DNA of 64,000 nucleotides from Nemertoderma westbladi (taxonomy: Eukaryota > Animalia > Xenacoelomorpha). The first letter of the stretch is position 1, and every line of letters begins with the position of its first letter. Both the position numbers and the translations under genes were made by a program. Positions 13,993-63,137 of this stretch are shown in pieces. The notes beneath the pieces were generated by a model. That model was not told the DNA's origin and did no database searches. It was given only the letters and a program-made list of their open reading frames with translations. Where the stretch lies: assembly GCA_032718475.1 (NCBI GenBank), contig JAUCBJ010000144.1, positions 1 to 64,000 of the forward strand. Reading direction: 5' to 3'.

Positions 13993-14423
13993 CTGATGGA
14001 GAAAAATTTATTTAATGTAAAAAATAAATAAAATAAAACTGTGGTAGACTTAGAATTTATCTTAATCTCATGCTTTATTTTTAAAATGGCTGTTGTTGGA
14101 TACTTTTTTACTTGTTTCTAACACAAGGGCACACATCACGGAAGGCTTCCGCAGGGGTAAACGCCTCGCAAACAACCGGCAATAAGGTGGCAATTAGCTG
14201 TAGTAATGGCGTAGTGAACTGTAGTATATAAAAACACCAGTTTTCGGCGCAATTATTACCAATTCAGCTATTTGCTGTAATAAATTATTTTCGTGGTTCA
14301 TGCTCTCAAAAAATATTAAATTTTTCAATTTTTTCATTATATATGTACCAGTACCACTGTCTCTGCCATCTGCCTGCATCTCTGACAACCCGCCACCACT
14401 CCCTGCAGCCCTGCCCTACATAC

Positions 14424-24648: not shown

Positions 24649-25469
24649 AACATAAACGATCAGTGTATTGGAATACAAGCTCTTGCTGACATTGTCATTG
24701 TGCATTGGTACCGGTGTCGTACGCCGCAGTATTGTTGATTCAGCATCAGCTCATCAGCAGTTTGCTATCCATTCACCATTGTTGATCCTTACTATATTGG
24801 GTAGATATTTACATTTCTCACGTATTCTATACTACTGGTAGGGCCTAGGTATTAGTAATGAGCTATTGTCTCATGCGTACCGTATCTCAGTATCTGGCCA
24901 CTTTACAGAATAGCACTAGGAATATTCTAGTTGTGAGGCACGGTTAGGGTACCTGCTTACTGTTACAAAGTCAGCGTAACTGTTTTGCGTAAACGGGCCG
25001 GGCCGTGACCGGGACCGCCGATAGGTGAAGGTGAAGCGTGAAGGTGATGGCTCAAACAGGCTCATTTATTGATTTATAATAATTCTGATATGCTGAATTC
25101 ATTAACTAACCATTGAATTGTATATAGTAGTATGACAGTTTCTTTATTGTGTACTAGCTTTAATAAAAAAAAACACTGGCACTGGTAGGCCTATACGAAA
25201 TTTTTTAAGAAAATATCAAACAGTTTACACAGACTACACCATTTAGGCCTAAATAATATATTATTATTTCTTATTATTAATAATACATTATTATTTAAAG
25301 AATGTATTATTGTATACGGTATCATTTTAATACAAATTATTTATTTTGTTCTTGACAGATTTAAATTGGAATAGTATTGACAACTTCGTTATACTGCGAT
25401 ATATCGGTAACAAATTGTTGATTTCTCGTTTATAATTAATGGCCAGAAACTAATTGCGTCCCAGTATCC

Positions 25470-26313
25470 ATGGCTGCCGGATCAATCCAAGTGCCGCTGA
25501 TAATTCCACTCCGCGCCCCGACGCCCGGGCGCTCCAAGTTCCACATCGACACGAACACGGCCATCGAGCTGCGTACCGACTCGTCGGGATGCGACCTGTA
25601 CTACACGGTGGACGGAAGTCGACCGGACCCCTTCTCCAACCTCGGGAAGCGGTGCACCGCCCGATACACTGGGCCCTTCACGCTCCCCGAGGGAAAAATA
25701 GTGGTCAAGGCGATTGCGATAACGTCGGACAACCTGCGGGAGAGCGGGGTGAACACTAAGAAAATGGTGGTGGACTACGAGAAACCAGAGTTTACCATGG
25801 CCGTGGATGACGATAAAGAGTTCCGTAAGGAGGTTGCTAGAGAACGCAAACGTGCGAGTAAGTACAAAGAGCGAGCGAACGAGCATAGAGAGAACTGGAT
25901 GGAGAGAGTGAGTGGTTCGGATAACCGGGTTAGTTACCCTGGAGCGCGGTTCACACAGACGCGACTAGCGGCCTGCGATACTAACTCCACGGTCTCCACT
26001 GTGTCTACTCGACCTCGCCCGAAGGATTACAACGCCATCCAGCGGGCCGCGAGAGACACCGATTTCCTGCACTGTATCTACTGCTACGCGCCCCGACCTG
26101 CGGACCCGTTCTCGAAGTTCTGCGTGGCGTGCGGTTCCGGATTGCCGGCGGTTCCCTCCACCCCGGGGTCCCAGATGGCGCCCCCGGACAGCGGAACCGT
26201 CCGGATGTGTCTCGAGTGTAAGGGGATGGTTCCTAGTAAGGCAATGTATTGTTTGTTCTGCGAAGCACCAATTCAACCCCAGCACCAACCCCAAGCCAGT
26301 ATTAAACTTAAAG
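25470..26313 (+). CDS. DZANK1: DZANK1 coding exon 1
   Basis: MAAGSIQVPLIIPLR...YYTVDGSRP...LPEGKIVVKAIA N-terminus and CxxC zinc ribbons; ends at an AAG|GCAAGT donor. Confidence 0.9.
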
Positions 26314-26639
26314 GCAAGTATCTATATTATGTGCACTACAATAATAATTCCCGAGATATTATTTATTATGATTATAGTATACTTCCTACACATACACAAT
26401 TCAGGTTGGCCACTTTAGATATCAGGATTTTGCACTTTAATAATTTTTTGGTGAAAAATTAATACAGATTTATGGGGAGTTAATATAGTTACTGTTTGTG
26501 TTTACTTGAAATCATTGCCGGCGTATTTGTAAGATTGCACCGTGAATCGTACACTATACAGTGTTTTAGTCTTTATTATGTTCCTATGGCAGGTATTTTC
26601 AATTAAATAAAATGGTGGTAAAATAATAGAGAATATTAT

Positions 26640-32231: not shown

Positions 32232-33039
32232 TAGACTAGATAACTGCCAACGAATTAGCACCCCCACAAAGATGCTGCCATACGGATGGATGGTCGAGCA
32301 TGTATTTCTGGCAAGTTTCAGCTTATGTGAACGGCGAGTTCAAATGAGCGAAGGACTTTCAGACATTTCGCCCTCTAGCGGCAAACTGGAGAACTACACA
32401 CCGAGTATCGTCCCCACAAAAACGCAGGCTGTGTTCTATTACATATCTCACAAGCTTTAGATTGAACCGATCATGAATAACGAAATGAGAAAATGATTTC
32501 ACTATCAGACATTTCACCCTCCGACGGCAGACTGGAGAACTTAGGCCTATTAGCTAGCTTCCTTTGGGGCTAATCAGTCTGAAAAAAGGGAAATAATTTA
32601 TTTATTCATGGCAAAATGAAATAGGAATACAAAATAGTATTGGACCTTCTGCTAATAATGTTCTATCATTATCACTTGTTCCTATGACAATATAAATAAA
32701 TTTTGTACCAACTCTGCTAAACTGTGCCTAACGAAAATGATGTAATTTAAATGATGCCTGAAAATTATCTAAAAATCGGCGGAGGATATTTTTATCTAAA
32801 ATCGAATGGGCGGAGCCGGAGGATATTTGTTTTTTTTTAATATATGGTCAAAGGACCGCTTATTGTATATTATATAAGCATCTAGGTTACTAGGTACCGG
32901 TACCACGGATTAGGCCATGTGTATAGGCCTAATAGCATAGTTCATAAACTGAAAGTAATTCGCTACAAAAGTGTATTTGCCATAACAGTGTCACGCTTCT
33001 TGTTGATATTATAATATGTTTGCAATTTAATTATTTTAG

Positions 33040-34499
33040 GTAAGAGAGTTTGTTTGAACTGCGGTGCCGGGAACCCGTCCAATATGAGTAGCTGCATCGT
33101 CTGCGAGGCGAATCTGCGGGAGCCGACGGAGAGTTCGATCAACCGTGGAAGTTCGGCACCGATCGTTGCAAACCGGGACTCGTTGCTCGTCGGCTGCGTC
33201 AAGTGCGGCCGAGTCAACAACCCGGACGCGCGGTACTGCGACTGGTGCGGCGCGCAGCCACAGGGCCGGCCGGCGCTGCTGAATGAGTGCGGTAAGTGCG
33301 GCGGCCGCAACGGAATAGCGTCGCGGTTCTGTTCCACGTGCGGCGCGTTGCTCGAGCCGCCGGCGCGCATCGATCCCCGTAACAGCGGGTTGACGCTGTC
33401 CCGGGGCGAGCCGATGGCCGAGTCTGTCCGGAAGTATGCCGGCGCGCCGGCTAGTTGGACACCGATATCGTTACCGGTGGGAAAGATAATCGGTAAGAAA
33501 GAAAGCGGGACCCAAACCGTCGGGTTGTTCTATCCGTCGAACAAGGAGTTGGATAAAAGTCGTTTGGTACAGGAGACAAAGAGGATCATAGAGGAGGGAG
33601 TGTCGACCACCTCGAAGAAATGGAACCCGACGGCGGTAAGTCCGGGACGCGGCTACTGGCGGCAACAGATCGAGCACATCTGCGGGAACCTCCGGGCCTA
33701 CACGTCCGGACAGAGCGACTTCCGGGCGGCCATCTCGGAAGGTCGGATGGGCCGGATGCTGAGCGGGAGCGTCCGGGAGGACGGCCACGAGCTCAGCGTC
33801 ACGCTGAACTTCCCATTGCGACAACAGCGGGACGACCCGTTGCGCGGGAAGAATCTCAACGTGACGTCGCAGGGGAAGTTTCTATCGGAGGTTATCGGCT
33901 CGACGCGACATCAGCTGACCACTTCGGACGATTCCGGGACCGAGTTCGAGTCGGTTACCACGGAAACAGAACCGAAAGGTAAGTTTTTAGGAAATAAAAA
34001 GCGTAAGAAGATAAAGAAGAAAGTCTTCGATGTCGATTTGTCTCCAGCAGATCGTCTTCTTCTTAAGGAGGTTGGGGATTCCGGGAGAGGGGACGTGGAG
34101 ACGTTGCGGCAGCTGATAGACGAGGGAGCGGAACCCAACATCCTCGACGAGAAGGGGTTCCCGGCGCTGTTCCTGGCGGTGCGGAACAACCACGTGGACG
34201 CGATCGGGACGCTGGTCTCCGCCGGTGCCGACCTGAAGCGGCGAGCGGGGCCTCGGGGCAACTCGGCGCTGCACGAGGCCGTGTTGTTGGGGCCCGCGGG
34301 GCAGGAAGCCATAGACGCCTTGCTAACCGCCGGGGCCAATACCAAGTGGCGCAACGATAAAGGGGAGACGCCATACGATCTCGCCGTGCAGGGCGGTTAC
34401 GATAGTATCGTTAATATGTTCGCGAGTAACGTAGGGCAACAGCTGCTCGATAAGATAAACAAACCGAAACGAGGATCCATTAGTGTCGACGTTTTCTAG
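33040..34499 (+). CDS. DZANK1: DZANK1 coding exon 2 (zinc ribbons and ankyrin repeats); spliced protein about 767 aa
   Basis: TTTTAG acceptor, phase 1, gives IKLK-G-KRVCLNCGAGNP; TQTVGLFYPS, SPGRGYWRQQ, ankyrin GNSALHEA. Confidence 0.92.
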
Positions 34500-43932: not shown

Positions 43933-46900
43933 CAGTAGGGAACATACCCTTAAATAAGCTCCAAAAGTGGGTTCCTATTTAAGGAAAATGGCTCTTATTT
44001 AGGGGTTTTTGGGCCTTTTTTGGATATTTTTTCGATATAATATGCAATAACTTGTTTCAGGAAAAAATACCGCATAATTTTATTTCACAATGTAAAAGTT
44101 GGGTCTTTCTTGAACATAAAGCAAAAAACCAGAAAACATTTCACCGTCCGGTTTTTTTTCTACAAGCGTTTTAAAATTGCATCAAAAATACGACTAGTTC
44201 CTAAATAAGGGGGATTTTTTAAATTTACCTTATTTAAGATATCGAAATTGTACACATAAATACTAAAAGTCCCTAAATAAGAACTTTTTGACCTGGGTTT
44301 CTTATTTAGGAATACAATTGTATTCCAAAATCTGCACATTCCTTAAATAAAATAAATATTCCTTATTCCTTACAGTATGTGTTACACTTCTTTCATAATT
44401 CTTTGATTTATGTCAGTCTGTATATTGCTAATTGTTGGGATAAGAATAAGGACAATGGTTGCACTGCACTCTATAAATCCTCTATAGAATATCGTATCAT
44501 AATGAAGTTGCTAGCACTGGCATTCTTACCTCACACGGTAGCATAGAATAGCCCATTGATATTCAAAAGAATAGCCCATCGCCCATCTGAGCGCACATAC
44601 ATTGTCACGTATTTCGATGAAACACGACTCAAGTAACTGGACATCGCCGCACAGTTTCGAAAAACTAACTTGTGTCCTGCATTTCCTCTTCTGCTCCGCG
44701 TGACGCCCCACTTAGATGGATTGTCCACAATGTCATGTCAATAGGCACAAAGATGGTTCGGTTGGGCAGCTGATAGACGTTATGAAGGTTAAAGATGATG
44801 ACTGGATGACGTTTTGGCTCAACTGGCTCAGGCAGGAGTGGGACACGTTCGTGGGACCTTTGCGCAGCATGAAGTGAGCAAAGCCTTAGCTAGCCCTAGC
44901 TGATAGGGGCCCCACCCCATTCAGCCATTAACATGTTGTCTTTCGTTAGTCAGAGGTCGTTCAACACAATACTCGTATCCTTAATTTGCCTCATAGCGTT
45001 CGTTTGTTTTTTACCAAACTTCAGATTATTTCAAATCTTTTGACAGACTACATACATACTAAGTTTCGTTTAATTTCATTAAGGAATGACCGAGTTATTA
45101 GCGATAAAAAATTTACAACGACGACAGACAACTCGTTAATGCACCCATATGCTAAGGCTTCGCTCACTTGAACGTGGCTCTCCACCACATTCAATCCGGT
45201 TCGACGCAGTTTGTTGCTCGTTGTTGCTCATTGTTGCTCATTGCTGTTCGTTGTGCTTTATTATTTCTCATTGTTGGTCATTGTTGCTCATTGTTGGTCA
45301 TTGTTGCTCGTTGTTGGTCATTGTTGCTTGTTGGTGCTCATTGTTGCTCGTTAGTTGTACTTTATTATTGCTCGTTGTTGCTCGTTGTACTCTATCTGTC
45401 TATTATTGCTCGTTGTTGCTCATTATTGCTCATTGTTACTCGTTGTTGTACTTTATTATTGGTCGTTCAATCGTTGTTCCTCATTGTTGCTCGTTGTTTC
45501 TCGTTGTTGTACTTTATTATTGCCCATTGTTGCTCGTTGTTGCTCAATATTACTCGTTGTTGCTCGTTCAGTCATTGTTGCTCATTGTTGCTCGTTGTTG
45601 TACTTTATTATTGCTCATTGTTGCTCAATATATCTCGTTGTTGCTTAATATAACTCGTTGTTGCTCGTTCAGTCGTTTTTGCTCATTATTGCTCGTTGTT
45701 TCTCGTTGTTGCTCATTGTTGCTCGTTGTTGTTCTTTATTATTGCTCAGTGTTTCTCATTGTTGCTCGTTGTTGCTCAATGTTACTCGTTGTTATACTTT
45801 ATTATTGCTCAATGTTACTCGTTGTTACTCATTGTCATTGTTGCTCATTGTTACTCGTTCCTCATGTCCTAATTATTGGTCGCTGTTTCTCGTTGTTGTA
45901 CTTTATTATTGCTCATTGTTGCTCGTTGTTTCTCGGTTTTGTACTTTATTATTGCTCATTGTTGCTCAATATATCTCGTTGTTGTTCAATATAACTCGTT
46001 GTTGCTCGTTCAGTCGTTGTTGCTCATTATTGCTCATTGTTGCTCGTTGTTGTTCTTTATTATTGCTCATTGTTGCTCAGTGTTTCTCATTGTTGCTCGT
46101 TGTTGCTCAATGTTACTCGTTGTTATACTTTATTATTGCTCAATGTTACTCGTTGTTACTCATTGTCATTGTTGCTCATTGTTACTCGTTGTTCCTCATG
46201 TCCTCATTATTGGTCGTTGTTTCTCGTTGTTGTACTTTATTATTGCTCATTGTTGCTCGTTGTTTATCGTTGTTGTACTTTATTATTGCTCATTGTTGCT
46301 CGTTGTTTCTCGTTGTTGTACTTTATTATTGCTCGTTCAGTCTATGTTCCTCATTGTTGCTCGCTGTTTCTCGTTGTTGCTCATTGTTGCTCGTTGTTGC
46401 TCATTATTTCTCATTGTTACTCGTTGTTGCTCATTGTTGCTCGTTGTTGTACTTTATTATTGCTCGTTCAGTCGTTATTCCTCATTGTTGCTCACTGTTT
46501 CTCGTTGTTGCTCATTGTTGCTCGTTGTTGTACTTTATTATTACTCATTGTTGCTCGGTGTTTCTCAATGTTGCTCGTTGTTGCTCGTTCAGTCGTTGTT
46601 CCTTATTATTGCTCATTGTTGTTCGTTGTTTCTAGCTGTTGCTCATTGTTGCTCGTTGTTGTACTTTATTATTGCTCATTTTTGCTCGTTGTTGCTCATT
46701 GTTTCTCATTGTTGCTCAATGTTACTCGTCGTAGTCGTAGTTGCTCATTGTTACTCGTTGTTGCTCATTCAGTCGTTTTCCTCATTATTGCTCGTTGTTG
46801 TACTTTATTATTGCTCAATGTTACTCGTTGTTGCTAATTGTTGCTCGTTGTTACTCGTTGTTTTGTTACTCATTGTTCATTCGTTGCTCGTTGTTGCTTA

Positions 46901-47781
46901 TTTTTGGTCATTGTTGCTCGTTGTGCATTTTTGCACCTATCCAATTAAGCTCAGAAGCTCCCTTATCTCTGCATCTTACAATGTCCTGTCAAGGTTAGGC
47001 GGGTAGGAGGTCATAACTGTTATAAGCAGGCAGATAAGGGCAGAAGGAGGACGGGGCTGGGAGACGAGGTTATAAGAGACATAATATAAGGATATTTAAT
47101 TTAATTTATTTAATTTAATATATAAGAAATGAGGCCAGTATTGGTTGACAGAAGGAGATACGCAATGCGTATCCTATTGCGCCTCATAATAGCCTCTCGT
47201 CAACAAGTCAACCCCATAGACTAGCGGCACTGGCTGTTTCAGCTGACGGGGCTCTGTCGAAAACGCGTCCCTGATGCAGTAAGGGCCCTCTTTTGAGGAG
47301 CAATATTATTATTGTCGCGGACCGGAACTGCTTCTACTCTCTGTGAGAAATGAGAAATATTTAATTTATTTAAGGAGTATGCAGATTTTGGAATGAAATT
47401 GTATACCTAAATAAGAAACCCATGTCAAAAAGTTCTTATTTAAGGACTTTTAGTATTTGTGTACAATTTCGATGTCTTAAATAAGGTAAATTTAAAAAAT
47501 CCCTCTTATTTAGGAACTGGTCGTATTTTTGATGCAATTTTAAAACGCTTGTAGAAAAAAAACCGGACGGTGAAATGTTTTCTGGTTTTTTGCATTATGT
47601 TCAAGAAAGAACCAACTTTTATATTGTGAAATAAAATTATGCGGTATTTTTTACTGAAACAAGTTCTTGCATATTATGTCGAAAAAATATCCAAAAAATG
47701 CCCAAAAACCCCTAAATAAGAGCCATTTTCCTTAAATAAGAACCCACTTTTGGAGCTTATTTAAGGGTATGTTCCCTACTG
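43933..47781. mobile_element. Non-autonomous DNA transposon C nested in the MULE, ~420-bp TIRs, CAGT...ACTG ends, 5-bp TSD CCAGA
   Basis: TIRs about 43933-44352 and 47365-47781 starting CAGTAGGGAACATACCC; CCAGA at 43928-43932 and 47782-47786. Confidence 0.9.
45210..46925. repeat. Degenerate 10-bp minisatellite (TTGTTGCTCR)n with higher-order variants
   Basis: Direct reading. Confidence 0.93.
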
Positions 47782-49558: not shown

Positions 49559-49742
49559 TTAAGAATGCTGTGCCGGCTTGTTGACAAAAGTGCGCCTCCA
49601 CAACTCCCTTACACTCTTAATAGTCTTAAAGCCTTATCAGTATCACCCATGACATTTGCTAGATCATCCGCATCTTCAAGGCCAGTGTCCTTTAAGACAG
49701 TAAGAAAGATGCGTCTCAAGAAAGTCATGGGCTGTCCACCAT
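49559..49742 (-). mobile_element. RTE-like LINE 3' end, interrupted by the LTR element
   Basis: Homologous to 24225-24356; continues after 62816. Confidence 0.85.
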
Positions 49743-50972
49743 TGTTCGCGCTTTTGAAGACCTTTAGCAGTTTAACCTGCCAAAATTTATATGTCTTTTA
49801 GTTAATTAAAACCACTTTAGCATACGACAATAATTTATGCTAATACGCAAAACATTAGCCGAAGTCAGCCCATGCGCGATCATTCACCCGATGGATCTAC
49901 ACCCGGGAGACTGAATTCGGATGCTTGAATTGTATTATTACAGTGTAAGGTTGCAGTGTATACCTAATGTATTATTCGATAGATCGTTAATAATTAATCT
50001 CTGACAGATATTATTGGCTTTCGGGAAATATTAACAGTTCCTTTAGGACGTGGCGCTTTATCTATTTAAACAGAACTAAGACTTATACTAAAACGCAACG
50101 ATACTGCTTATGATTAAAGTATAAAGCGTATTCTTTAGGAAATACTTTGTTACCAATCACGATCATACACACTATTCTGCCGACAGTCAGTACATTTGAT
50201 CACACATAAAGAGAGCAGTAATTGACTCACGTAGGGTCTGCTAAATAACATTGGATTCAATACACACCACATTAATATAAATCGCAATTGTTATGTATAG
50301 CCGGTCTCTCTAACCTGTAGTGTTATCAAGAAAATTGGGAATTGGGTGATTTATCCGTATTATCCAAATAGCAATATTTCCATCAACAAATAGGTACAAT
50401 TAATAACTGACGGTAAAATAACAGTACAAGCAATATGATTAATGCATTTAAGATTGATTAAATTGATCGGTAGTTAGTTAGGTAACAGTTTATACTTTCG
50501 ATAATTCAAGCAGTTTACTATAGTTCTTACTAAAAGGCCGGTGTTTCTGGCTTAGACAGCAATAACAACAAAGTATCAAGAAAAAACCGTAAGACTGAAC
50601 ACTCTCCTTATGATCGACTAAAAGCTACACGTCGACAGGAAAAATCGCTCTGATTGGCTCAAGCCAAACAAAGAACCGTGCATCTAATGGCTGTTTCCAT
50701 GTCAGCAACCAGCTGTTAGATGTCGTAATATGAATCATCACGGCTAAGCTGTGAAAGGTAGTTGGTGCATTACAAGTTTTTTGCCTTACCATGTCCACCA
50801 AAACACGTATATAGCAGAATGATTTTTATGTCCGTTAAAACACCTGTAAAGGTACCTTGCGGGCGAGGGGAATATATATACAGTCCGAGAACCCTTTTAG
50901 AGTATTCCAGCGCCTGGGGGGGAACTGGCCAGCAAAGGCAAACGTATCAGTTATCCCACAAAAGCTTTTACA
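49743..50972 (-). repeat. 3' LTR (1230 bp)
   Basis: Direct repeat of 61587-62816; preceded on the minus strand by the purine-rich GGGAGCGG (PPT-like, 50973-50980). Confidence 0.96.
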
Positions 50973-51050
50973 CCGCTCCCAGAAAATGGGATTTAAGTCT
51001 ATAAAATATACAAAATCACAGTTTCTAAAATACAAAAATACTCTAAACAG

Positions 51051-53177
51051 TTAGTCTTTCTTGCGCGGACGGCGTTTACGCAGTTTTTTGAAGCTAGCAA
51101 GAGTCCTTTTCTCTTTGGGGCGAGCCACTTTACTAGGAGGGCTATAACTCCTGGGTGAAGGGTGCAATATGATTGCATCAGAAGGTATGGGATTGCGATC
51201 GGTATATCCGCCGGTCGAAGTACCGGGTTGATTGACATCAACGTCAGGGGAGAGGGGTCTAACGGCTTTGAGAGCTCGTTTCAAGACAGCCGCTCTTACG
51301 GGTCCTTTACGAGTGGTCTGAACGAGGGCCGTGGGTGGACCATAGGCAGTTAGAAACTTCCTTGGTTTAATGGTTCTTTCTAACTCGCGTTCGCGGGCTC
51401 GATACTCGTAAGGCCGTCGATATACTTCTTGTAACTCAGGGTGTGAGTTGACGAATAAGTCTCCATAGGCAGGGTCTTGACGGATAAAGTTTATTAAGTT
51501 GTAAGACTGGATGTCACTCGGATTAATGCTCCTGAGGAATTTGCGTACATATTTGGTTGAAATACATTCTCCAACGCGTTTCAATAGTTCATAACTTGAT
51601 AGGCGCGATTTCTGCTCGACGGAGGCAAACAAATATGGATGGAACGCATAAACTCCTTCGTAGGCGCGTCCAGGATAATAGCGATGGCGTGAATCACAAT
51701 GTAAATCAGCGTTCGCTTCCCAAGCTCTGATATAACGTAGTACAATCATTTCATCTACGCTCTCTAAATCATGGTTGAAGGGACAATCAAAGCTGGCGTG
51801 TCCTTTTAATTGACAATGATGGCATTGAGTCATAAATTGGGGGCAGACGGCAAAAATGTGCAAATTATTAAGCCGACAATATGCACAATAGATTTCCATC
51901 GACGGTTGCTCGTGGAAATAGGAACAAAGATCGTTGGTGTCCATGGACGTAATATGGTCTCTCGATGCGCACAGCCGACAACGTTGTCGAGAAACATAAT
52001 TGGCATGGCGATAATCATACGCAGTAAGACACTGTGGACCTTGATACCATTCCAATATATAGTCGCTATCGCTACTCCGAGCCGTGGGGGGCTGAATCTC
52101 TTCCGATTCTAAACATATGGGTTCGTCTTCCCCTTGTATAGTTGAGGTAGGTATGGCCGTCTCCTCAAGTGGACCTACCGTCTGAATTTCCACGACAGAA
52201 TAACCGGTGGGGATCCGAGGTCTTTGGATAACCGAGGAGTGCAGGTTTATCACACAAATGTCTCGGAAAATAGCGAATCCAGCGCTATCCAACTTCTCCG
52301 CAGCTGAGTCTCTTAAGCTGAGCTTGGTCAAAGCGCGGTCTTTGAATTGGCTATCCACGTTGCGAAACGGGGTTAAAAACCGTCGGAAACATTCAAAGCG
52401 GATGAATTTATTATGTTCATCTAGCTTAGCGAGTTTGGTCCCAAGGATTAATGGATGGGCGCGTATAGTACGACTGCACACATCGGCTAGCCAACCGGAA
52501 AGTGCGGTGTTTTCGAAGATTGTGTAGATAGCTAAGGAGGGACGGAGTGGAACACTCATGAAGCTATACACGGCGCCAGGTGCGGTCAACGGTCCGTCAA
52601 AGTATAATCGAGAATAATGGTCTCCGTATACTTGTTGATAGTTGATGGGATTTCCGACCTTGAAATTCCACCCGTATTCCTGAAAGGCAAGATGTCCGAT
52701 GGAAGTTCGTTGCACCTTTGTAATGTTGCTAGACACATTAGCATACATGGTGCGAAAGAAACCTCGGCCTTCGGCCCAAGGCGCTATCAGCTGAGTATCC
52801 ACGAAAGGATAGGGGATATTCTCCATATTCCGAAAGTCGTTTTGGAGATCTCCATAAACAGCTGAGCCGATTTTAACGATTCTTTCGTTGAATAACATCT
52901 CGAGAACGGGTTGGGGTAACATCGATCCATCGATACCCATGGCCGGTTTGCGTTCGGTGTCAATGACGTAACGCTGCGCGAGTTCGAATTGTCCATGTCG
53001 GAGATTCTTTTGCGTTTCGGTGAGAGTTTCGAAGGAATAATCGATCGCGTCGGAACACGCTCGCGTAAACACGTGAGTGGAGCCAGCTAATCCGCGTATC
53101 AAGCTATCCACAAACGCTTGTAAAGGTAGAGTATATCGCTCTCTAATACCAAGGTCATCTTCTATCAATTCCGTCAT
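51051..53177 (-). CDS. LTR-element ORF2 (708 aa): DEDDy 3'-5' exonuclease-like N-terminal domain, three CCHC-like zinc knuckles, basic tail
   Basis: VIDTE (Exo I), LPQPVLEMLFNERIVKIGSAVYGD (Exo II), PLT...VYSFMS (Exo III-like); CRLC..H..C, CAYC..H..C, CHHCQLKGHASFDC. The ORF is certain; the domain call is from motif recognition only. Confidence 0.65.
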   Translation of the reverse strand: MTELIEDDLGIRERYTLPLQAFVDSLIRGLAGSTHVFTRACSDAIDYSFETLTETQKNLRHGQFELAQRYVIDTERKPAMGIDGSMLPQPVLEMLFNERIVKIGSAVYGDLQNDFRNMENIPYPFVDTQLIAPWAEGRGFFRTMYANVSSNITKVQRTSIGHLAFQEYGWNFKVGNPINYQQVYGDHYSRLYFDGPLTAPGAVYSFMSVPLRPSLAIYTIFENTALSGWLADVCSRTIRAHPLILGTKLAKLDEHNKFIRFECFRRFLTPFRNVDSQFKDRALTKLSLRDSAAEKLDSAGFAIFRDICVINLHSSVIQRPRIPTGYSVVEIQTVGPLEETAIPTSTIQGEDEPICLESEEIQPPTARSSDSDYILEWYQGPQCLTAYDYRHANYVSRQRCRLCASRDHITSMDTNDLCSYFHEQPSMEIYCAYCRLNNLHIFAVCPQFMTQCHHCQLKGHASFDCPFNHDLESVDEMIVLRYIRAWEANADLHCDSRHRYYPGRAYEGVYAFHPYLFASVEQKSRLSSYELLKRVGECISTKYVRKFLRSINPSDIQSYNLINFIRQDPAYGDLFVNSHPELQEVYRRPYEYRARERELERTIKPRKFLTAYGPPTALVQTTRKGPVRAAVLKRALKAVRPLSPDVDVNQPGTSTGGYTDRNPIPSDAIILHPSPRSYSPPSKVARPKEKRTLASFKKLRKRRPRKKD

Positions 53178-53220
53178 ATCTGCTATCTGAGTTTGTTAAT
53201 ATCAATATAAGTTAATATTT

Positions 53221-53376
53221 TAGGCAAGCGGGCGTCGCTGCCTACTCGGCTTTTTGCCCCCGGACAGTGGGTTTCTCAGCGCCGATGTACCGTTGTCGCG
53301 GTGTTTACGCCAACATGTAGCAACAGCACGACAACGATAACCGGCACAAGTCCCACCACTGTCCGTCCCAAAAGCT
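53221..53376 (-). other. Structured RNA element (long hairpin plus small hairpin) just 5' of ORF2
   Basis: Nested complementary arms GGACAGTGG/CCACTGTCC and TATCGTTGTCGTG/CGCGACAACGGTA, whose mismatches are G-U pairs only on the minus strand. Confidence 0.7.
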
Positions 53377-54796
53377 TGAATCCACTTGAGGTTATCTCGG
53401 TAGAGTTAGGGCTACTTTACAATTGCGATTAGCTACTGTAAACACACTTTAGTAGTAACATTCACCTATAAACGCACAAATTCCATACAATCGTTACTTA
53501 CTGCACACATGCATGCCATTTGTCCGTTAGTCAGTGTCTTCCAGAATGTCACGTTATTACTATGTATCCTTGGATACCAATAGTGCGCTATGTATACTCT
53601 TATGCTACGCAATGGGGCAAGCTTTTTATTGTTCCTTTTAACTTGCTTCTAATTCTAGCGTGGGTGTTGCCATGGTGACATTATGGAAAACTAGCGGTAG
53701 AATTAGGGCAATTCTCATGCATACAGATCTGGGATGTTATTTAATAGTAATTCTTTAATTGTCAATATCCTCTTTATGCATGATTTTATAAATTTTATCG
53801 GCTATTGACTATATGTTGGAGATTCTCGCGCTCTAGTACACTCAATATGAATCTCCGCTCCCATGATCTATTAATTACTGGAATTTTGGGAATGTTATAA
53901 ATTGCACAAAATGACAATTTATGAAATTCATTCGAATATGAATTTAAATTTATTCCCGTGAATTTTATTATTTGATGTTAAAATTGACACAATTTGATTC
54001 CAGAGCAGGTCTGGGGACATAGGATCCTTAATTCTATGAAAATTGTCTTTTAAGAGTATCGGTAAGTGCTACGATATCTTAATCGACTAGAATTGTTAAC
54101 GGATCTGAATTTTACAGATTTTAATAAATATTAAATTAATATTTAGGATGGGCACCGATTTATTCCAGAACTTGTCTGGGGACGTTAACCACTGATTCTA
54201 GAATTTGTCTTTCAAGTATATCGGTGGGTGCCACGATATCTTAATCGACTAGAATTACAGATGGTCAAAAGTTTAACAGATTTATTTGCGATTTACGCTA
54301 CTGTTAGAGGGACATCACGCTACTATATGTATTATTTGTTATAAGGTAGAAGAGCAATATCGCACGAAGCAATGTCAGTGTGAAGAGGCAAGTCGTTTCC
54401 AAGGTCTACCCAGAGCTTGGTTTAGCCGAGACACGAGGATCTGAACTTTGCATTCCTAATACTCTGCCTACCAATAATACTTAAATATAGTAGTGGCTTT
54501 ATTGTACTTTAAGAAGTACTGACATGTCATCTTACTATAGTCTCGCATTTATAATATAATACGGACAGTAAGGAAAGAGAAAAGAATTATTTCTCGCCGT
54601 CGCACTAGATATATTATGTAATTACGTAATAAACACTAATATATTGCACTAATCTACTAAATAATCTAAATAACATTCCACTAAATAAAATTAAATAAAA
54701 CGATTATAATAAAGTACATAATAATCCATACCTAAATATAAAATAATAATAAAAAAAATATAAAATAATATAGTCACACACCCACTCCATATATAA

Positions 54797-57700
54797 TTAC
54801 GTTATGGAGTCCCTAGATCTTTGTCGAATTAGGGAAGTGGTCGTAGGAAGAGTATCCTGCCTTCCATGGTTTCCGGACAGTTTTCGGTCTCTTTCCAGTA
54901 AACCTAAGCGACCAGCTGGGCGATTAGGCTGTCGTGTTACTTCCTCCGCTCCCTTGGCCTGTCTAATCTCCTCAGTGGTAAGATGAGGAGGCCATTCATC
55001 TTCTTCTTTACTTAGGGAGTCGGGTCCACCTAACCAGCCGGGAGTATCTATCCTTTCTTGAGGAGTTGCTCTTCTGGAATCGATGTCGGCTGGATTAATC
55101 GTCCCAAGGCAATGTCTCCATTGATCTACATTGGAGTTAATATCGTCATTATCTGAGGAGTATGGTGTTCCCTCAGTTGGATCGTCCACATCACTGCTCT
55201 CCACTTCCCCCTTTACTTGGTATACCTGTTGTTGAGGTAATCTCTCTTTGAGAGTTCTACGGGAAGGGCCAGTGAAGTACCAACCTACTCTAGTTCTTAC
55301 CGCATAAGTTTGTAATGGCTGCGGTTGAGCAGGCCGTTTCTCTAATGGCTCGAGCGCCTCATGCGCGTTTTGGCCGATGAGTATTTGCACTCCAGGATAA
55401 TCGGTTTGGAATCGAGGTATCTCAAGATGTTGGATGCACTCGTCCTCGTCCCAGTTATAAGGTTCTGCTTGAGTAGTAGCAAAGTTCTTTATAGCCACCA
55501 TTTTTACTGACCTTATACCTTGTGTTCCTAACTTATCCTGGGGGGTGGACAACACACCTACATAGTAATCTGCCGTTAGGGTAGATTTCCAAACCTGCAT
55601 AATTCCTGACATATTCAATTTAGTCCGGAACTTGGGTTGTCCAGCAAAGATATCTTCGGCTAGTTCTTGATCGATGAATGTTCCTGTGCTGCCGGAGTCA
55701 AGTAGGGCGTTCACTATGTAACTCTTGTTGGGACCATGAACTCGAACTTGCACTACAGGAAATTCTCTTATTCCTATGTTGGAAGTTGGAACTTTCCAAG
55801 ATGGTTGTTTGTCAAAAGGAGTTGGAGTAAACTCGTCAGTGTCCTTTTCATCCGTAAGTGCTCGATACACTGTGGTATTTATTAGATAACAGGATTCGTT
55901 GGCATCGGAGAATTCGTCTGTATAGAATCCTTCCCACTCAGAACCTTGGTCAGTGTCGTTCACATCACTGAATTGGACATGTAGTTCGGGCTCACTTACC
56001 TGACTCGGGTTGTCTCGTTCGAACTCACTGTGTAACAAAATGTGATGTTTCGCGCCACACTTTGCACACTTTGCGTCAGAGTAACAGGTTCGCCGTTGGT
56101 GTCCTGATCTGAGGCAATTATAGCATAACCGCTTATTCCACAGGACTGTACGTCTGTCTACAGGGGATTTCTTTAGAAATTCAGCACACGCACTCAAACG
56201 GTGAGGCCCGTCGCACAGCGCACATTTTGGTTTGATGTTACTCACCTTAACTTGGTTAACGTTATGCACTCTCGTTCTTTCTTCGGGCTTTCTTCCGTGA
56301 ATTCTCTTAGGAGACGTAGGAGGAGTTGTTGTTACCTGTTCTCTCCTGTCACTGGTTCGAGACTTGTATTTACTTACGTCTTTATAGGTCTTGTTGTCAT
56401 AGTAAGATTTTGCTGTGTCTTTCCCGCTGTCCTCTTCTTGAGAAGCTTGGCTTTCGCCGTCGTCAGTATAACACACTGGTATTATCCTTCTCCTAGAATC
56501 GGGTTTCTCACTTACCTTATTTTCCGATGTTTTCTCTCTGGCCTGCCTTATGAGTTGTAATTTTACTTCACTATCTAAGAAAGACATGAGATCAGCCATG
56601 GTTGGACTTCGTCGTTGTTGTTCATTCATGTACAACACTTTCTTGTCCCAGCGTGTACATACTCCACCCTTTGGTAAAGTAGAGACTACGGCTCCAATAA
56701 CCATGGAACTCTGGTATTCGTGCGACTTACCTAACCAGTCCAGTTGTCTACAGATCTCTTGAATTTCATCGGAAAACTCTATAATCCCACTACTAAGGAA
56801 GTGTCGGGGGGCTACTAATTTTGTATACAAATACTTAGCTATGTTATCTTTGTTACCATACCTGATGTTTAATGTATCCCAAACTTGTTTTAATCCATCT
56901 GGATGTCCAATAAACTTTAACGCCATTAACTTGGGAGGTCCTTCCAAACACTTGATGAGGAATCTAAGTTTCTCTCCGTTGGATAGTACAGAATTCTGTA
57001 TGCTATCTTTGTAATATTCGTTGAAAGGTAACCATTTCATCTCATCTCCATTGAATTTGACGATCTCTCCCACTTTGACCGCTTGGCGGGCTTCTGTTCT
57101 AGCCATCTGACGCGTAAAGCTTTCTTGGGCCATCGTGTTATTTAATATCGAATTATCGGTATATAAATTTCTCGGATCATTATCAGATCTATAGGGAATA
57201 TCATTAATAACAAGTCTATAATCACCCTTAATAGGGTTTGCTATAGGAGTTTCAACTTCACTAGCAGTATAGATGCGTGTAGGCTCTACACCTTGCGCAT
57301 GTAATACTTCAGACCTAACGGGTTGACACAATGTTACAGGGGGCATTGGTATGCCTTTTTGTATATTGACTAATTTGTCGCGTTCTAGCGCGATACTTTG
57401 CTGCACTTCTTGCAACTCTGCTCTACTTTCCCTCACCGTTCCCTTAAGTTGGTGGACAGTCTCCTGCATCTGTCCTAACAGGAGATTCATCCCCCGCCGT
57501 CCCTCTTCCACCCACTCAACCGCCGAAGCGGGAGTCGCCAACATAGTAGCGGGCTGACGCGGGACGACGGGAGACAAATTATTGATTTCTCTCTCTGCTA
57601 TCTGGACAGGGGTATTTGCATGGACTGTTCCACCGGGTACAGGCAGTGTAGTACTATGTAAAGGGAATTTAGAGTTAAGCTCTGGAAGTGTAGGGGTCTC

Positions 57701-59446
57701 TAGCACAGAAGTGACTTTGGGAACTACAGGCCTAATTATTTCAGGTTCATCGACTATAGTAGGGAGTCTTTTGACCTGGATAAATTGTTCTATGGGTTCT
57801 GCACTACCTAAATCTGTGCTAGTTAGCTGTCTTTTAACAGCTGGGGGCAAATCAGGCAATTTGCGACGGTAATATGTTTTTCTACGCCTACTTAGATGAG
57901 ATCTATTTCCTCCGCTGTCAGGATCGGTAGTATCGCCTTCCTCCGAGGATGTGTATCCTTGACGCTTGGGAGTAGATTTTCTCATCATCTGCATTTGATT
58001 AGCAGTAAACTGTTTATTTATACTGTCTTGCGTCTCTTGCAGCTTTTCCAACTCCAATTGGATAGTCGCCTCAGACGCTCTCCGTTCTGCTTCTGCCACT
58101 GTTGCCTTTCTTTCGGCTTCCGCCGTTTTTCTTTCTTCTTCTGCTTCTGCCGCTTTTGCCTTTCTTTCGGCTTCCGCCGCTTTTCTTTCTTCTTCTGCTT
58201 CTGCCGCTTTTGCCTTTCTTTCGGCTTCTGCTTCTTTTCTTTCTGCTTCTGCTTCCGCCGCCGCTGCTGCTGCTACCTTTCTTCTCTCTATCAGTTCTTT
58301 CTTTACTTGTTCTTCTCGGACTCTAATGAGGCGGAGTTTTTCATCACATTCAGCTTGGTTTGCAGCTAACATTTCGGCATCGATTGAGTCCAATATAAGC
58401 TTGGTTCCTTCACTATTAGGGGAAAGTCCATGCAGCCGTCTCCTCAACTCTTCGTCTCCTAGGAATCGCTGATAGTCGGACAAATAAATGTCGATAGCGT
58501 CTCTAGTTCGCGGTTTCTCGGCGGCCTCTTCGCTTTCTGCTTGAGAAAGGGTGACATCAATTTGTTCTTCACAAGTTGATCTCTCAGCCAGCTGGGATTT
58601 CCACGTGGCCGTTTCCTGTACTTTGAGATCTACCCGATGTAGCCAAGTTTTGACAGCAACCTGCAGCGACGTGTCCTGTCTTCTTTTGGAAGTTTCCTCA
58701 AAGGCTGAGAGGATTAGTCGAATGCGTAGGGTTCTTTCACGTACTTGGTATAGCAGCTCTTCCTGCTCTTGAGGTCCTTGAAGTTGTCGAAACAGTTGTT
58801 CTTCCAAGCGCTCCAAGGAGCCGAAGAATCCCTGCACATATCCTGCTGCCGACCTCTTCCAAACAGCTGGATCCATTGTATCTTTTGCCACTCCCATCCT
58901 GTGTATATCTTCCCAAGTAGCCTCGGACATATCAAACGGAAGTCCGAGTCCGGGAAAGTTCCATTGTGATTCAACAATAGATATCAATTCTTCCCTGGCG
59001 TATCCCGCGTAATTATCTTGGGTCGCTCGCTTATTCTTCGCCCAGTCGGCTTGATGTTCCTCCACCGCAATGAATATCGTAGTTAGCACTGCAGCGGGAA
59101 GGGTAAGAAGGGGGTCCGAGTAGACTGTAGCAGCCATCTGCACTCCATGTTCGGGAGTCAGCTCTACAGTATCCGAACTGCTGGAGCTATCGGGTCGCTG
59201 GGAAGTAGGTTCTTGACCAAGATGTTGCTGCGATAAGACAACTGCCTCTTCCCGTTTTACCTGTGCCCGAGTGCCTATGATGGACCTATGGTGGACTAGC
59301 CTAGGGTCTGATACTACTGGAGGGATGACCTTTTTTACAGTAGGAGGTGAGCCGAACTTCTCTCTTATTCGCTCTACACTCCTATCTGAATCACAGATAG
59401 TGGTCTCGATCAGACTGTCCGACAGGTTTTTCTGAGTGTCAGACAT
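54797..59446 (-). CDS. BEL/Pao Gag-protease polyprotein (1549 aa) with vestigial pol tail; no RT or integrase core
   Basis: Capsid-like KFNGDEMKWLPF...KLRFLIKCLEG; triple knuckle CALC..H..C / CYNC..GH..C / CAKCGAKHHILLH; protease ALLDSGS; AVRTRVGWYFTGP. Confidence 0.93.
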   Translation of the reverse strand: MSDTQKNLSDSLIETTICDSDRSVERIREKFGSPPTVKKVIPPVVSDPRLVHHRSIIGTRAQVKREEAVVLSQQHLGQEPTSQRPDSSSSSDTVELTPEHGVQMAATVYSDPLLTLPAAVLTTIFIAVEEHQADWAKNKRATQDNYAGYAREELISIVESQWNFPGLGLPFDMSEATWEDIHRMGVAKDTMDPAVWKRSAAGYVQGFFGSLERLEEQLFRQLQGPQEQEELLYQVRERTLRIRLILSAFEETSKRRQDTSLQVAVKTWLHRVDLKVQETATWKSQLAERSTCEEQIDVTLSQAESEEAAEKPRTRDAIDIYLSDYQRFLGDEELRRRLHGLSPNSEGTKLILDSIDAEMLAANQAECDEKLRLIRVREEQVKKELIERRKVAAAAAAEAEAERKEAEAERKAKAAEAEEERKAAEAERKAKAAEAEEERKTAEAERKATVAEAERRASEATIQLELEKLQETQDSINKQFTANQMQMMRKSTPKRQGYTSSEEGDTTDPDSGGNRSHLSRRRKTYYRRKLPDLPPAVKRQLTSTDLGSAEPIEQFIQVKRLPTIVDEPEIIRPVVPKVTSVLETPTLPELNSKFPLHSTTLPVPGGTVHANTPVQIAEREINNLSPVVPRQPATMLATPASAVEWVEEGRRGMNLLLGQMQETVHQLKGTVRESRAELQEVQQSIALERDKLVNIQKGIPMPPVTLCQPVRSEVLHAQGVEPTRIYTASEVETPIANPIKGDYRLVINDIPYRSDNDPRNLYTDNSILNNTMAQESFTRQMARTEARQAVKVGEIVKFNGDEMKWLPFNEYYKDSIQNSVLSNGEKLRFLIKCLEGPPKLMALKFIGHPDGLKQVWDTLNIRYGNKDNIAKYLYTKLVAPRHFLSSGIIEFSDEIQEICRQLDWLGKSHEYQSSMVIGAVVSTLPKGGVCTRWDKKVLYMNEQQRRSPTMADLMSFLDSEVKLQLIRQAREKTSENKVSEKPDSRRRIIPVCYTDDGESQASQEEDSGKDTAKSYYDNKTYKDVSKYKSRTSDRREQVTTTPPTSPKRIHGRKPEERTRVHNVNQVKVSNIKPKCALCDGPHRLSACAEFLKKSPVDRRTVLWNKRLCYNCLRSGHQRRTCYSDAKCAKCGAKHHILLHSEFERDNPSQVSEPELHVQFSDVNDTDQGSEWEGFYTDEFSDANESCYLINTTVYRALTDEKDTDEFTPTPFDKQPSWKVPTSNIGIREFPVVQVRVHGPNKSYIVNALLDSGSTGTFIDQELAEDIFAGQPKFRTKLNMSGIMQVWKSTLTADYYVGVLSTPQDKLGTQGIRSVKMVAIKNFATTQAEPYNWDEDECIQHLEIPRFQTDYPGVQILIGQNAHEALEPLEKRPAQPQPLQTYAVRTRVGWYFTGPSRRTLKERLPQQQVYQVKGEVESSDVDDPTEGTPYSSDNDDINSNVDQWRHCLGTINPADIDSRRATPQERIDTPGWLGGPDSLSKEEDEWPPHLTTEEIRQAKGAEEVTRQPNRPAGRLGLLERDRKLSGNHGRQDTLPTTTSLIRQRSRDSIT

Positions 59447-61574
59447 GTTTAGTTATATAGTTGAATGCCTACTACTATAGTTTCAGTTAAAGCAAGTCTG
59501 GTAATTCAGTATGACCGCAAGCCTAGCGATTTATTACCGGTACCGTTACTCAGTGGAACGTGATATATATACAATATATTAGAATACCGGTATGCTTATA
59601 ATATATAAGTGTTATTACAGACTAGATGTGTCACAGAGTACCGGTATAATTTTAGCACAAATATAGAAATAAATATAATAAGCCTATGGTAAGTACCGGT
59701 ATGTCAATTATTTTTAGAATAATTGAATTTCTGAATATTTTGGGGTTACTTCGTTACTTTAACTTACTTTATTACCGTTATTTAAGCAGTAGTCCAACTG
59801 ACAGTGAGACCTAGTTGTTGTATGGCAGGCCTACTATTTATAAATCGTTTGAGTTGATTTATAATATTTATATACCCGTTATATGGGTTTTTGTCAATAT
59901 TTGAAATAAATGTTATTATTTCTGGGGGAGTCACTACACAGAAGCTGAACGCCTCTCAGTGAAGTGCTATTTATTTGACACTAAAACTGATAATTCTAAT
60001 TTACCTAAGTTACTTAATACTACAAATTACTTACGATACGGGTGAGATTAATTCTCTAATTAAACACAACAAAATATTACGTACGAAATTTTTAGGGTAA
60101 TTTTACAGGAAGTCTACAAACCAGTCCAACAAAGGGTTAGATTTCTGGCTATTACAAAGGACAGGGTACTACGGTATTTAAATAATAAGTAGTAGTAAAT
60201 ATATTGTACTGTCCAGATAGGAAAATACCACCGCCTGACGACCTATAACCGTATCGCTATAGGTACTACGTTATGTATCACGGATTGTTCCTACCCAGAA
60301 GCTAATAGAGCTAACGAATGTGCCTATCAACCACTTTACAACACAAATATACTGCCTACACTAATTACTTCGGAAGGCACTGTACACTAAACCCTAAATT
60401 AGGTACAAGTACCGGTATAACAAATAATCAGTAGTTAAATATACTTGAACAGTTAAAAGAACCACGGCATCTGCTGGAGTGACCGAAGCACAAAGTCGTC
60501 AGTCTTTACCTACGCCAAGCAGCCCTGATGTAGTACCGGGGTTAGTTTAACTATAACGGTATGTATAACAAGCACAATTACTGTAGGAATAAACTTGGGG
60601 ACATGAATGTTGCGAATAATCGCATAAACTCTGAATAATAAATATTACGCTACCCGTACAGAATACTCAAACAAATACAAACCAAACGCTGGCAGACTAC
60701 TATTAAGCCTAAACAAACTACTGTATGTGCAGATTCTGAAACTGTTAGTTAGTATGCGTTCTAACACGGTAGTACGACTTACTCTTTAAGAGGGGATTGA
60801 CCTTACCGCTTATGGCTGCCCCAACTTACTAACGGCACTTGATCAGACCAACTCTACACACGCAGCAATCCCTTCAGACCTAAAAATAGCTAGACAACAA
60901 TCCAGCCTACAAATATTTGAGTAATAACTATTACGGTACCTGAACAGACCACACAAACAAGCACAGGCTAAAACACTGGCAGACTACGATCAAGCCTAGA
61001 TAAACTACAGTATATGCAGACTCTGAAACTGTTAGTTAGTATGCGTTCTATCACGGTAGTACGACTTACTCTTTAAGAGGGGATTGACCTTACCGCTTAT
61101 GGCTGCCCCAACTTACTAACGGCACTTTATCAGACAAACTCTACACACGCCGTAATCTCTCCAAACCCAACCACAGTCAGACAGCAGCTCAGCCTACAAT
61201 TATCTGAACAATCTGAGCAGACTTACACGTCTTCAGCTCAATATTAACTTACTAGGAAATAAAACTGACAGAAATAAGTAAGCTCCAAAAGAAACAAGGG
61301 GTGTACAGTCCCTAATCTCTTAAACAGCCTACCGGTATACAATAATCAAAATCGAATAATACTAAATGTACTTGTACAGCAGTACCGGTACCGGTGATGA
61401 CAGTTAGGCCTACTGACCTACAAAGTACCGGTTCAGTTTTACCGGTCACTACGGTATTTTGCAACCTTATTGCCTACTGCAATAAGATTATAAACTGTTA
61501 CTGTTCGACAGAACAGTATTAAGCTGTATTTAATGCCTACACTTGCAACCTTATTGCCTACTGCAATAAGATTA

Positions 61575-61586
61575 ATAAACTGTTAC
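61575..61586 (-). other. Non-tRNA primer-binding site (GTAACAGTTTAT), putative self-priming
   Basis: Abuts the 5' LTR CA end; exact reverse complement of minus-strand LTR 62326-62337. Confidence 0.75.
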
Positions 61587-62816
61587 TGTTCGCGCTTTTG
61601 AAGACCTTTAGCAGTTTAACCTGCCAAAATTTATATGTCTTTTAGTTAATTAAAACCACTTTAGCATACGACAATAATTTATGCTAATACGCAAAACATT
61701 AGCCGAAGTCAGCCCATGCGCGATCATTCACCCGATGGATCTACACCCGGGAGACTGAATTCGGATGCTTGAATTGTATTATTACAGTGTAAGGTTGCAG
61801 TGTATACCTAATGTATTATTCGATAGATCGTTAATAATTAATCTCTGACAGATATTATTGGCTTTCGGGAAATATTAACAGTTCCTTTAGGACGTGGCGC
61901 TTTATCTATTTAAACAGAACTAAGACTTATACTAAAACGCAACGATACTGCTTATGATTAAAGTATAAAGCGTATTCTTTAGGAAATACTTTGTTACCAA
62001 TCACGATCATACACACTATTCTGCCGACAGTCAGTACATTTGATCACACATAAAGAGAGCAGTAATTGACTCACGTAGGGTCTGCTAAATAACATTGGAT
62101 TCAATACACACCACATTAATATAAATCGCAATTGTTATGTATAGCCGGTCTCTCTAACCTGTAGTGTTATCAAGAAAATTGGGAATTGGGTGATTTATCC
62201 GTATTATCCAAATAGCAATATTTCCATCAACAAATAGGTACAATTAATAACTGACGGTAAAATAACAGTACAAGCAATATGATTAATGCATTTAAGATTG
62301 ATTAAATTGATCGGTAGTTAGTTAGGTAACAGTTTATACTTTCGATAATTCAAGCAGTTTACTATAGTTCTTACTAAAAGGCCGGTGTTTCTGGCTTAGA
62401 CAGCAATAACAACAAAGTATCAAGAAAAAACCGTAAGACTGAACACTCTCCTTATGATCGACTAAAAGCTACACGTCGACAGGAAAAATCGCTCTGATTG
62501 GCTCAAGCCAAACAAAGAACCGTGCATCTAATGGCTGTTTCCATGTCAGCAACCAGCTGTTAGATGTCGTAATATGAATCATCACGGCTAAGCTGTGAAA
62601 GGTAGTTGGTGCATTACAAGTTTTTTGCCTTACCATGTCCGCCAAAACACGTATATAGCAGAATGATTTTTATGTCCGTTAAAACACCTGTAAAGGTACC
62701 TTGCGGGCGAGGGGAATATATATACAGTCCGAGAACCCTTTTAGAGTATTCCAGCGCCTGGGGGGGAACTGGCCAGCAAAGGCAAACGTATCAGTTATCC
62801 CACAAAAGCTTTTACA
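61587..62816 (-). repeat. 5' LTR (1230 bp)
   Basis: Direct repeat of 49743-50972. Confidence 0.96.
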
Positions 62817-63012
62817 ACCATGCTTATTCACTCCATGAGGTGCACTGGCTGGTCCTCACGGCTTAAAGCGATGTCCTGCAAAGCGGAGGCGGCTTTGTTC
62901 TAGTGTCAAGCTTGGGGGAACCAATGACTGAATGAGACACCTCCAACTCCAATGTTATATAGTGTCTGGTTGGAGATGCAGAGATGTGTGCATTGTACTT
63001 GACACAGTGAAC
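62817..63012 (-). mobile_element. RTE-like LINE fragment, continuation of 49559-49742
   Basis: Homologous to 24030-24220, with small insertions and a deletion. Confidence 0.85.
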
Positions 63013-63137
63013 CTAATCAAAACAATTAGTCAATAAACATTAACTCAATAACACAATAGGTTACAGTTTACAGCTTAGTCTTATTTTTGCCATACGAAAA
63101 TACCACAGGTATGGCAGTATGGGTCTGTGGGTATGAA

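Follow-up and report, generated by a model that had tools for sequence, protein, structure and literature searches.

A predicted RNase D-like, zinc-knuckle accessory gene in a pol-less BEL/Pao-type LTR retrotransposon of Nemertoderma westbladi

Introduction

Why would an LTR retrotransposon that lacks pol keep a second long open reading frame (ORF), and what does this ORF encode? The question is raised by a 64,000-nucleotide stretch of Nemertoderma westbladi DNA (assembly GCA_032718475.1, contig JAUCBJ010000144.1, positions 1 to 64,000; hereafter the window), in which a 708-codon ORF sits near the 3' end of such an element. To our knowledge, non-env accessory genes of LTR retrotransposons are few and untested. 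Silencing suppressors are well known from plant and insect viruses, and the equivalents in animal retrotransposons that we know of are scarce. A DnaQ-like domain is among the known accessory domains, according to the sections of PMC6338049 considered here. In addition, DEDDy RNase D-like ORF3s have been described in the bdelloid LTR elements Juno and Vesta and in Athena/Terminon elements (Rodriguez, Kenefick and Arkhipova 2017, PMC5408684); in the parts of that paper dealing with ORF3 their function is presented as untested, and comparisons with mut-7, EXD1 and Maelstrom are already discussed.

Results and Discussion

The carrier is a very young, non-autonomous BEL/Pao-type element

The ORF lies in a very young, non-autonomous LTR retrotransposon of BEL/Pao type, for which the following features were located:

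61587..62816, minus strand: 5' LTR, 1230 bp, TG...CA, 99.92% identical to the 3' LTR
49743..50972, minus strand: 3' LTR, 1230 bp, found by self-comparison of the window
49738..49742, no strand: target-site duplication ACCAT, left copy, 5 bp
62817..62821, no strand: target-site duplication ACCAT, right copy, 5 bp
61575..61586, minus strand: primer-binding-site position, 12 bases complementary to a 12-mer within the LTR
62326..62337, minus strand: candidate self-primer, LTR position 480-491
50973..50981, minus strand: short purine-rich tract at the polypurine-tract position, directly before the 3' LTR
54797..59446, minus strand: gag-protease ORF, 1549 aa, with DUF1759, gag knuckles, aspartic protease and an in-frame tail

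The LTRs are direct repeats with one difference per 1230 bases. Contigs from three of four runs join position 49737 to 62817 across five shared letters; since the element sits inside an older repeat, these empty-site contigs need not imply a polymorphic insertion. This older repeat (flanks 49559-49742 and 62817-63013) has further copies at about 5138-5643 and 23858-24356 and matches DUF6451.

DUF1759, an established marker of BEL/Pao gag, was matched in the gag-protease ORF at E 2.7e-12, and the aspartic protease at E 0.002. A DUF1759-type gag with knuckles, a protease, a TG..CA LTR pair and a short, 5-bp target duplication are what members of BEL/Pao (Belpaoviridae) share. Unlike autonomous members, the element has no ORF or domain for RT, the RNase H core or integrase between its LTRs, its primer site is not of tRNA type, and a nuclease-like ORF stands where some members carry env; as there is no RT, the placement is made by gag alone and not by an RT tree. 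The in-frame tail of the gag-protease ORF (54797-55120) carries a WRH..NPAD..W..GP motif at residue 1443 that had no match in Pfam and that we take to be the end of a BEL/Pao RNase H, which suggests that pol was lost through an internal in-frame deletion. The 1.6-kb spacer between this ORF and the 708-codon ORF is full of stops; a stretch within it (54409-54480) was considered as an integrase remnant and dropped, as Pfam gave no match. The first-pass annotation, made from the letters of the window, had stated that the accessory ORF was kept while pol was lost, and this agrees with the open ORF and the missing RT, RNase H and integrase.

The primer-binding-site position (61575..61586) is not complementary to a tRNA 3' end, and the 12-mer at LTR 480-491, with which it can pair, occurred in 4 of 20000 shuffled LTRs. 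This 12-mer would be the 5' end of the element RNA, and the element is a candidate self-priming BEL/Pao retrotransposon, probably self-priming.

Several other features were seen around the leader. About 29 bases upstream of the LTR 12-mer there is a TATA-like word. The primer-site unit is duplicated together with a small hairpin (61461-61586), the second copy pairing with the LTR word in a predicted fold, and contigs in three runs skip 96 bases within this duplicated region. The 2.1-kb 5' leader (59447-61574) has no sense-strand ORF longer than 57 codons and holds an internal 290-base tandem duplication (60632-61207, 85%). The rest of the window is repeat-rich and of animal type. It contains an uninterrupted 610-codon ORF with AMP-binding enzyme domains (6491-8320, plus strand; E 1e-59), large exons of two host genes, a double-zinc-ribbon/ankyrin gene and a BTB-BACK-Kelch gene (25440-26459 and 33015-34496, plus strand; 13288-14927, minus strand), and, at 43933-47781, what is probably a non-autonomous DNA transposon, a simple-repeat array (45140-47000) between the arms of a 443-base inverted repeat (94%).

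Anatomy of the accessory ORF

The 708-codon ORF was uninterrupted, on the strand of gag-protease and between it and the 3' LTR, 78 bases before which it ends, in agreement with its earlier description as an intact sense ORF. Immediately ahead of its ATG stand two AG dinucleotides. Its parts are:

51051..53177, minus strand: accessory ORF, 708 aa, ATG at 53177, stop 51051-51053
52473..53060, minus strand: predicted RNase D-like DEDDy domain, about residues 40-235, likely catalytic positions S48/E50, D110 and Y218/E222
51783..51980, minus strand: three Cys/His zinc knuckles, residues 400-465
51588..51740, minus strand: unnamed conserved segment after the knuckles, about residues 480-530
51054..51122, minus strand: Lys/Arg-rich tail, residues 686-708

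As the first-pass annotation also had it, the protein shows no transmembrane segment (best 19-residue hydropathy 1.33) and its acidic N-terminus has no signal-peptide core, which rules out an env gene. Three CCHC-like knuckles and a Lys/Arg tail had likewise been proposed, and both are present, although the knuckles are unequal: the first (400-418) is an atypical cluster, C400-X2-C-X4-H-X9-C, the second (431-445) reads C431-X2-C-X5-H-X4-C, and the third (452-465), C452-X2-C-X4-H-X4-C, is canonical. That the knuckles were derived from the gag of the same element found no support (E 0.18). The tail may serve as a nuclear signal or in RNA binding. Pfam returned a weak knuckle match and nothing else for the whole protein, PF01612 included among the models not matched.

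Homologues form a small unnamed family

A phmmer search over 1.84 billion representatives recovered two homologues, P0001 (E 8.6e-7, 29% identity) and P0002 (E 2.7e-4), and a search with the P0002 domain gave two matches among 2187 candidates, P0007 and P0002 itself. Together with their cluster members these make 20 proteins in three clusters, all unnamed. The clusters have a common layout of nuclease-like domain, variable linker, three knuckles and conserved segment, the exception being P0006, which is shorter and lacks the knuckles. Additionally, 19 of the 20 homologues carry the full DEDDy set (D-x-E, the Exo II Asp and YxxxD), while P0001 has YxxxE. Overall identity in the alignment is 21-29%, yet the Exo II motif and the knuckle residues C400, C403, H440, C445, C452, C455, H460 and C465 are invariant, as are E487, A490, R499, G508 and L526 in the segment after the knuckles.

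Among candidates with lengths near that of the query, the whole-protein search found none in 3399, and a search with a three-sequence alignment found none in 3781, although this search was insensitive, since it missed its own members too. Searched for the genomic surroundings of the homologues, metagenome contigs, viral contigs, prokaryote genomes and phages gave nothing and plasmids one unrelated match (E 0.8). PHROGs gave nothing relevant. The longest contigs carrying homologues (9.4-11.5 kb) are compatible with LTR elements but are no evidence for them.

Profiles support a DEDDy-type domain closest to RNase D

The similarity to the DEDDy superfamily was significant at the profile level and held against shuffled and reversed controls. 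In NCBIfam, residues 1-259 matched RNase D models alone (rnd, E 8e-4 and 7e-3). A four-sequence family profile matched a profile of 28 RNase D-type domains (E. coli rnd and 27 recovered from 30 loci) with 94% probability from Exo I to the 'DTQ' motif, against at most 0.85% in 100 column shuffles and 0.23% for the reversed profile, and against 14% for 20 single-domain bacterial PF01612 proteins. With the query left out, the three homologues still aligned with RNase D over the stretch between Exo I and Exo III, both included (67%), and the 708-aa protein alone scored 16.4 bits, compared to 7.2 or less in 2000 shuffles. Of the WRN/EXD/Mut-7 subgroup, to which the first-pass annotation had likened the domain, EXD2 was matched at E 0.092. 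The nearest Atlas clusters of residues 40-320 were PF01612 at 0.92, a tool for which scores of 0.9 occur in 4-10% of shuffled proteins and whose mark of 170 shared features was not reached here (162-166). The three nearest of these clusters are mostly from Nucleocytoviricota; this is a lead on where retroelements may have obtained the nuclease, not evidence of transfer.

Sequence searches of the PDB gave no match for the N-terminal half alone, and with alignments the significant matches were to the knuckles alone. AlphaFold yielded no usable model for the whole protein from the single sequence (pLDDT 32.8) or for residues 12-252 from a six-row alignment (pLDDT 33.9). Taken at the level of profiles, these data support a DEDDy-type domain whose best-scoring tested relative is RNase D. 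The DEDDy-type domain placed by the first-pass annotation at about residues 70-210 is thus supported by profiles, with limits moved to about 40-235.

The active site is likely altered

Which residues would form the active site was less direct. The first-pass annotation had taken D73/E75 as Exo I, D110 as Exo II and Y204/S208 as Exo III and had remarked on a short Exo I-II spacing. All these residues are where it had placed them and D110 does correspond to Exo II, being invariant in four families and aligned with D85 of RNase D, but D73/E75 is most likely not Exo I. It lies 14 residues from the conserved LP87, compared to 45-55 in three homologues, and 37 from D110, compared to 57 in RNase D and 68-78 in the homologues, which leaves too few residues for two core strands (strands 2-3). 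The stretch that matches Exo I together with strands 2-3 is residues 45-72, and D73 aligns beside the Asp that ends strand 3, so the short spacing appears to be an artefact of choosing D73. Summed BLOSUM62 scores of the ungapped registers were 28 for S48/E50, 12 for D73/E75, -23 for D46/S48 and -40 for H35/F37, the last of which was discarded. The best register is then S48-F-E50, with D46-Y-S48 as the alternative preferred by MAFFT, which puts D46 under the Asp of the homologues. Every tested register that leaves room for strands 2-3 lacks one Exo I carboxylate. Most likely, Exo I is S48/E50 and a Ser occupies the first catalytic Asp position.

For Exo III, where an active DEDDy enzyme has Y-x-x-x-D, the candidates are Y218-x3-E222 and Y204-x3-S208, neither of which ends in Asp. 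Y218/E222 scored 34 against 13, a margin due to the closest homologue alone (P0001, 28 versus -3), which it fits over 28 residues and beyond which it continues as a proline-free stretch. Y204/S208 is less probable, yet P0002 and P0007, which are more distant, give it a small advantage (8 and 8 versus 5 and 1), and one HMM alignment and one MAFFT run preferred it as well. Y218/E222 seems the more likely Exo III.

A Ser at the first catalytic Asp together with a Glu at the last would probably abolish two-metal catalysis, and we consider the protein of this copy rather likely to be catalytically dead. Trypanosoma brucei RNase D (TbRND) is reported to cleave no longer once one or the other of its Exo I residues is lost (D80A, E82A; PMC7797062), and BmExd1, with a Ser at its first catalytic position, is described as devoid of RNase activity while binding single-stranded RNA (PMC4712191). 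The pseudo-nuclease proposed in the first-pass annotation thus remains likely, now by virtue of the Ser at the first catalytic Asp position.

An active enzyme is the main alternative to a dead one. The family could be a 3'-5' exonuclease that processes the ends of element RNA, for example by maturing the self-primer cut from the RNA 5' end, with this copy either active through shifted acidic residues or individually damaged. The intact sets in 19 of the 20 homologues fit this, as do the presence of E50, D110, Y218 and E222, the nearby D46, two residues from S48, which would allow acidic residues to be repositioned, and a primer site that is not of tRNA type and has its 12-base complement in the LTR. 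TbRND, with the same order of domains, is also reported to trim the tails of structured RNAs (PMC7797062). However, none of the registers leaving room for strands 2-3 offers a D-x-E at Exo I; moreover, Tf1-type elements are described as self-priming, and the sections of PMC4600332 on priming report no gene of this kind in them. We regard an active exonuclease as doubtful. Of the roles that the first-pass annotation had proposed for its pseudo-nuclease, namely countering piRNA silencing, RNA traffic and trimming of the self-primer, the last is hard to reconcile with a dead active site.

An apparently abundant and young family

In three DNA runs, taken from three studies, contigs covered all bins of the element, with a depth over the accessory ORF like that over gag (summed contig depth, not copy number); full coverage at such a depth indicates that the family, which looks abundant and young, regularly carries the ORF. 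Being very young, the copy in the window says little by its own intactness. Among sister sequences, the tool selected 32 pieces for listing out of 111,766, of which 29 fall within the element. The seven listed pieces inside the accessory ORF had 184 substitutions and no gap over 1783 bases, and gaps were found in five of nine listed non-coding pieces versus none of these seven (Fisher p 0.034), a comparison affected by the richness of the non-coding stretches in slippage-prone runs. Similarly, none of the 12 listed indels (of 177) fell in either ORF, the two ORFs making up 52% of the element. These data are suggestive of frame conservation in sister contigs. The first-pass annotation had held that disruption in sister copies would speak against its reading; the seven pieces show none by gaps, but in run X4 one contig leaves out 160 bases of the ORF.

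These comparisons bear on a further explanation, namely that the ORF is a decaying passenger, a captured and once active nuclease gene that is losing its active site while riding a recent amplification. Its N-terminal strands are the most diverged part with respect to the homologues, and two of the three differences listed in the accessory ORF change a residue (among 40 listed of 1489; in gag-protease 11 were synonymous and 9 non-synonymous). Bdelloid ORF3s, in addition, are reported to show no departure from neutrality (PMC5408684). On the other hand, gap-free contigs run across the nuclease domain at about 86-87% identity (420 and 341 bases), the knuckle ligands and the Exo II motif have stayed invariant among distant homologues, and 2.1 kb of accessory ORF is still open although pol has been deleted. 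A passenger gene is, in our judgement, very unlikely.

Relation to known systems

The kind of gene described here is already published, and the idea of a DEDDy ORF3 in LTR elements is not new. Like the bdelloid ORF3s, the gene is an extra RNase D-like DEDDy ORF, without a transmembrane segment, in the third-ORF position between the pol region and the 3' LTR, a likeness of description and not of sequence. The bdelloid proteins have intact catalytic residues (DEED) and carriers with pol, and the text on them, in the parts considered, has no 'CCHC' and gives a Cys-His-Cys motif for two families alone (PMC5408684). In contrast, the element in N. westbladi has a gag of BEL/Pao type and lacks RT and integrase, and its accessory protein has three knuckles in the C-terminal part and a Ser at the presumed first Asp. 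Juno and Vesta are of gypsy type. In the literature searched (supplements, most subscription journals and Repbase reports being outside its scope) we found no DEDDy ORF in a BEL/Pao element, and the arrangement was described in rotifers alone.

The order of domains is that of TbRND, in which a DEDDy domain and a linker precede an array of CCHC fingers, and where fingers 1-2 are reported to hold nucleotides 5-9 from the RNA 3' end while the pocket takes the end itself (PMC7797062). In this regard, the best Atlas cluster of P0002 was a Euglenozoa cluster with PF01612 and zf-CCHC (0.92, 194 shared features); a match to 7c45 (E 1.3) ran through the knuckles alone. TbRND belongs to the cell, is active in mitochondria and has four canonical fingers (PMC7797062), whereas the protein studied here is encoded by a mobile element and has three knuckles (one of them atypical), a long linker and a basic tail. 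The architectures are alike, and common descent of the fusion is not implied.

The third comparison is with EXD1 and Egalitarian, pseudo-nucleases in which the DEDD fold is described as reused for RNA binding (PMC4712191; bioRxiv 10.1101/2025.08.03.668247); BmExd1 and the accessory protein would share the Ser at the first catalytic position (PMC4712191). EXD1 and Egalitarian are host genes, have Lsm or LOTUS-type partners and lack knuckles, and the accessory ORF shows no sequence sign of descent from them.

What is new here is the carrier, BEL/Pao-type, pol-less and probably self-priming, a TbRND-like RNase D plus knuckle architecture common to a small family as yet unnamed, and an active site that is likely dead while relatives have theirs intact.

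A tentative role in shielding element RNA

Our preferred reading, a serious possibility that we nevertheless offer tentatively, is that the accessory gene encodes a predicted-dead RNase D-like clamp with three knuckles that shields the element's own RNA. By analogy to TbRND, the knuckles would hold single-stranded RNA a few bases from its 3' end and the nuclease pocket would take the end. A dead pocket, as in EXD1, would bind without cutting, turning the protein into a 3'-end clamp that could protect element RNA from trimming and decay by the host at that end. An autonomous relative would copy the pol-less element in trans, and the accessory gene would be retained for the advantage that it gives to RNAs of its own family; we propose own RNA as the target since a pol-less element has most to gain in the competition for the enzymes of a helper.

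The same parts could instead serve as a decoy against silencing, in which the protein, through its dead pocket and its knuckles, binds piRNA/siRNA precursors of the host or competes with trimmers (Nibbler/Mut-7, PNLDC1, EXD1) and so lowers the silencing of the family in trans. Host DEDD pseudo-nucleases are reported to act in piRNA biogenesis (PMC4712191), a silencing role has been raised for the bdelloid ORF3s (PMC5408684), and the family seems to be abundant and young. There is, however, no sequence sign that the accessory ORF descends from EXD1 or Mut-7, the best tested match being RNase D, and a public good acting in trans would be less easily kept by a non-autonomous element. A decoy seems to us unlikely, and the clamp on own RNA is the role that we favour.

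A broader proposal, which we consider speculative and improbable as a whole, joins several of these points: that there is an undescribed retroelement family of RNase D plus zinc-knuckle proteins with active and dead forms, and that in this apparently self-priming BEL/Pao lineage the dead form would either clamp the 3' end of the self-primer or genome RNA or act as a decoy for small-RNA trimmers of the host, being kept by a pol-less family and maybe supplied to its autonomous helper.

Conclusions

DEDDy cargo is extended by this element to a BEL/Pao-type carrier, where such cargo can outlast pol. Additionally, the relatives P0002 and P0007, with intact sites, and the likely dead protein from an abundant, young family make a natural pair. 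Lastly, should the protein turn out to guard element RNA or to weaken the trimming of small RNAs, the resistance of transposons to piRNA control would be open to direct study through it.
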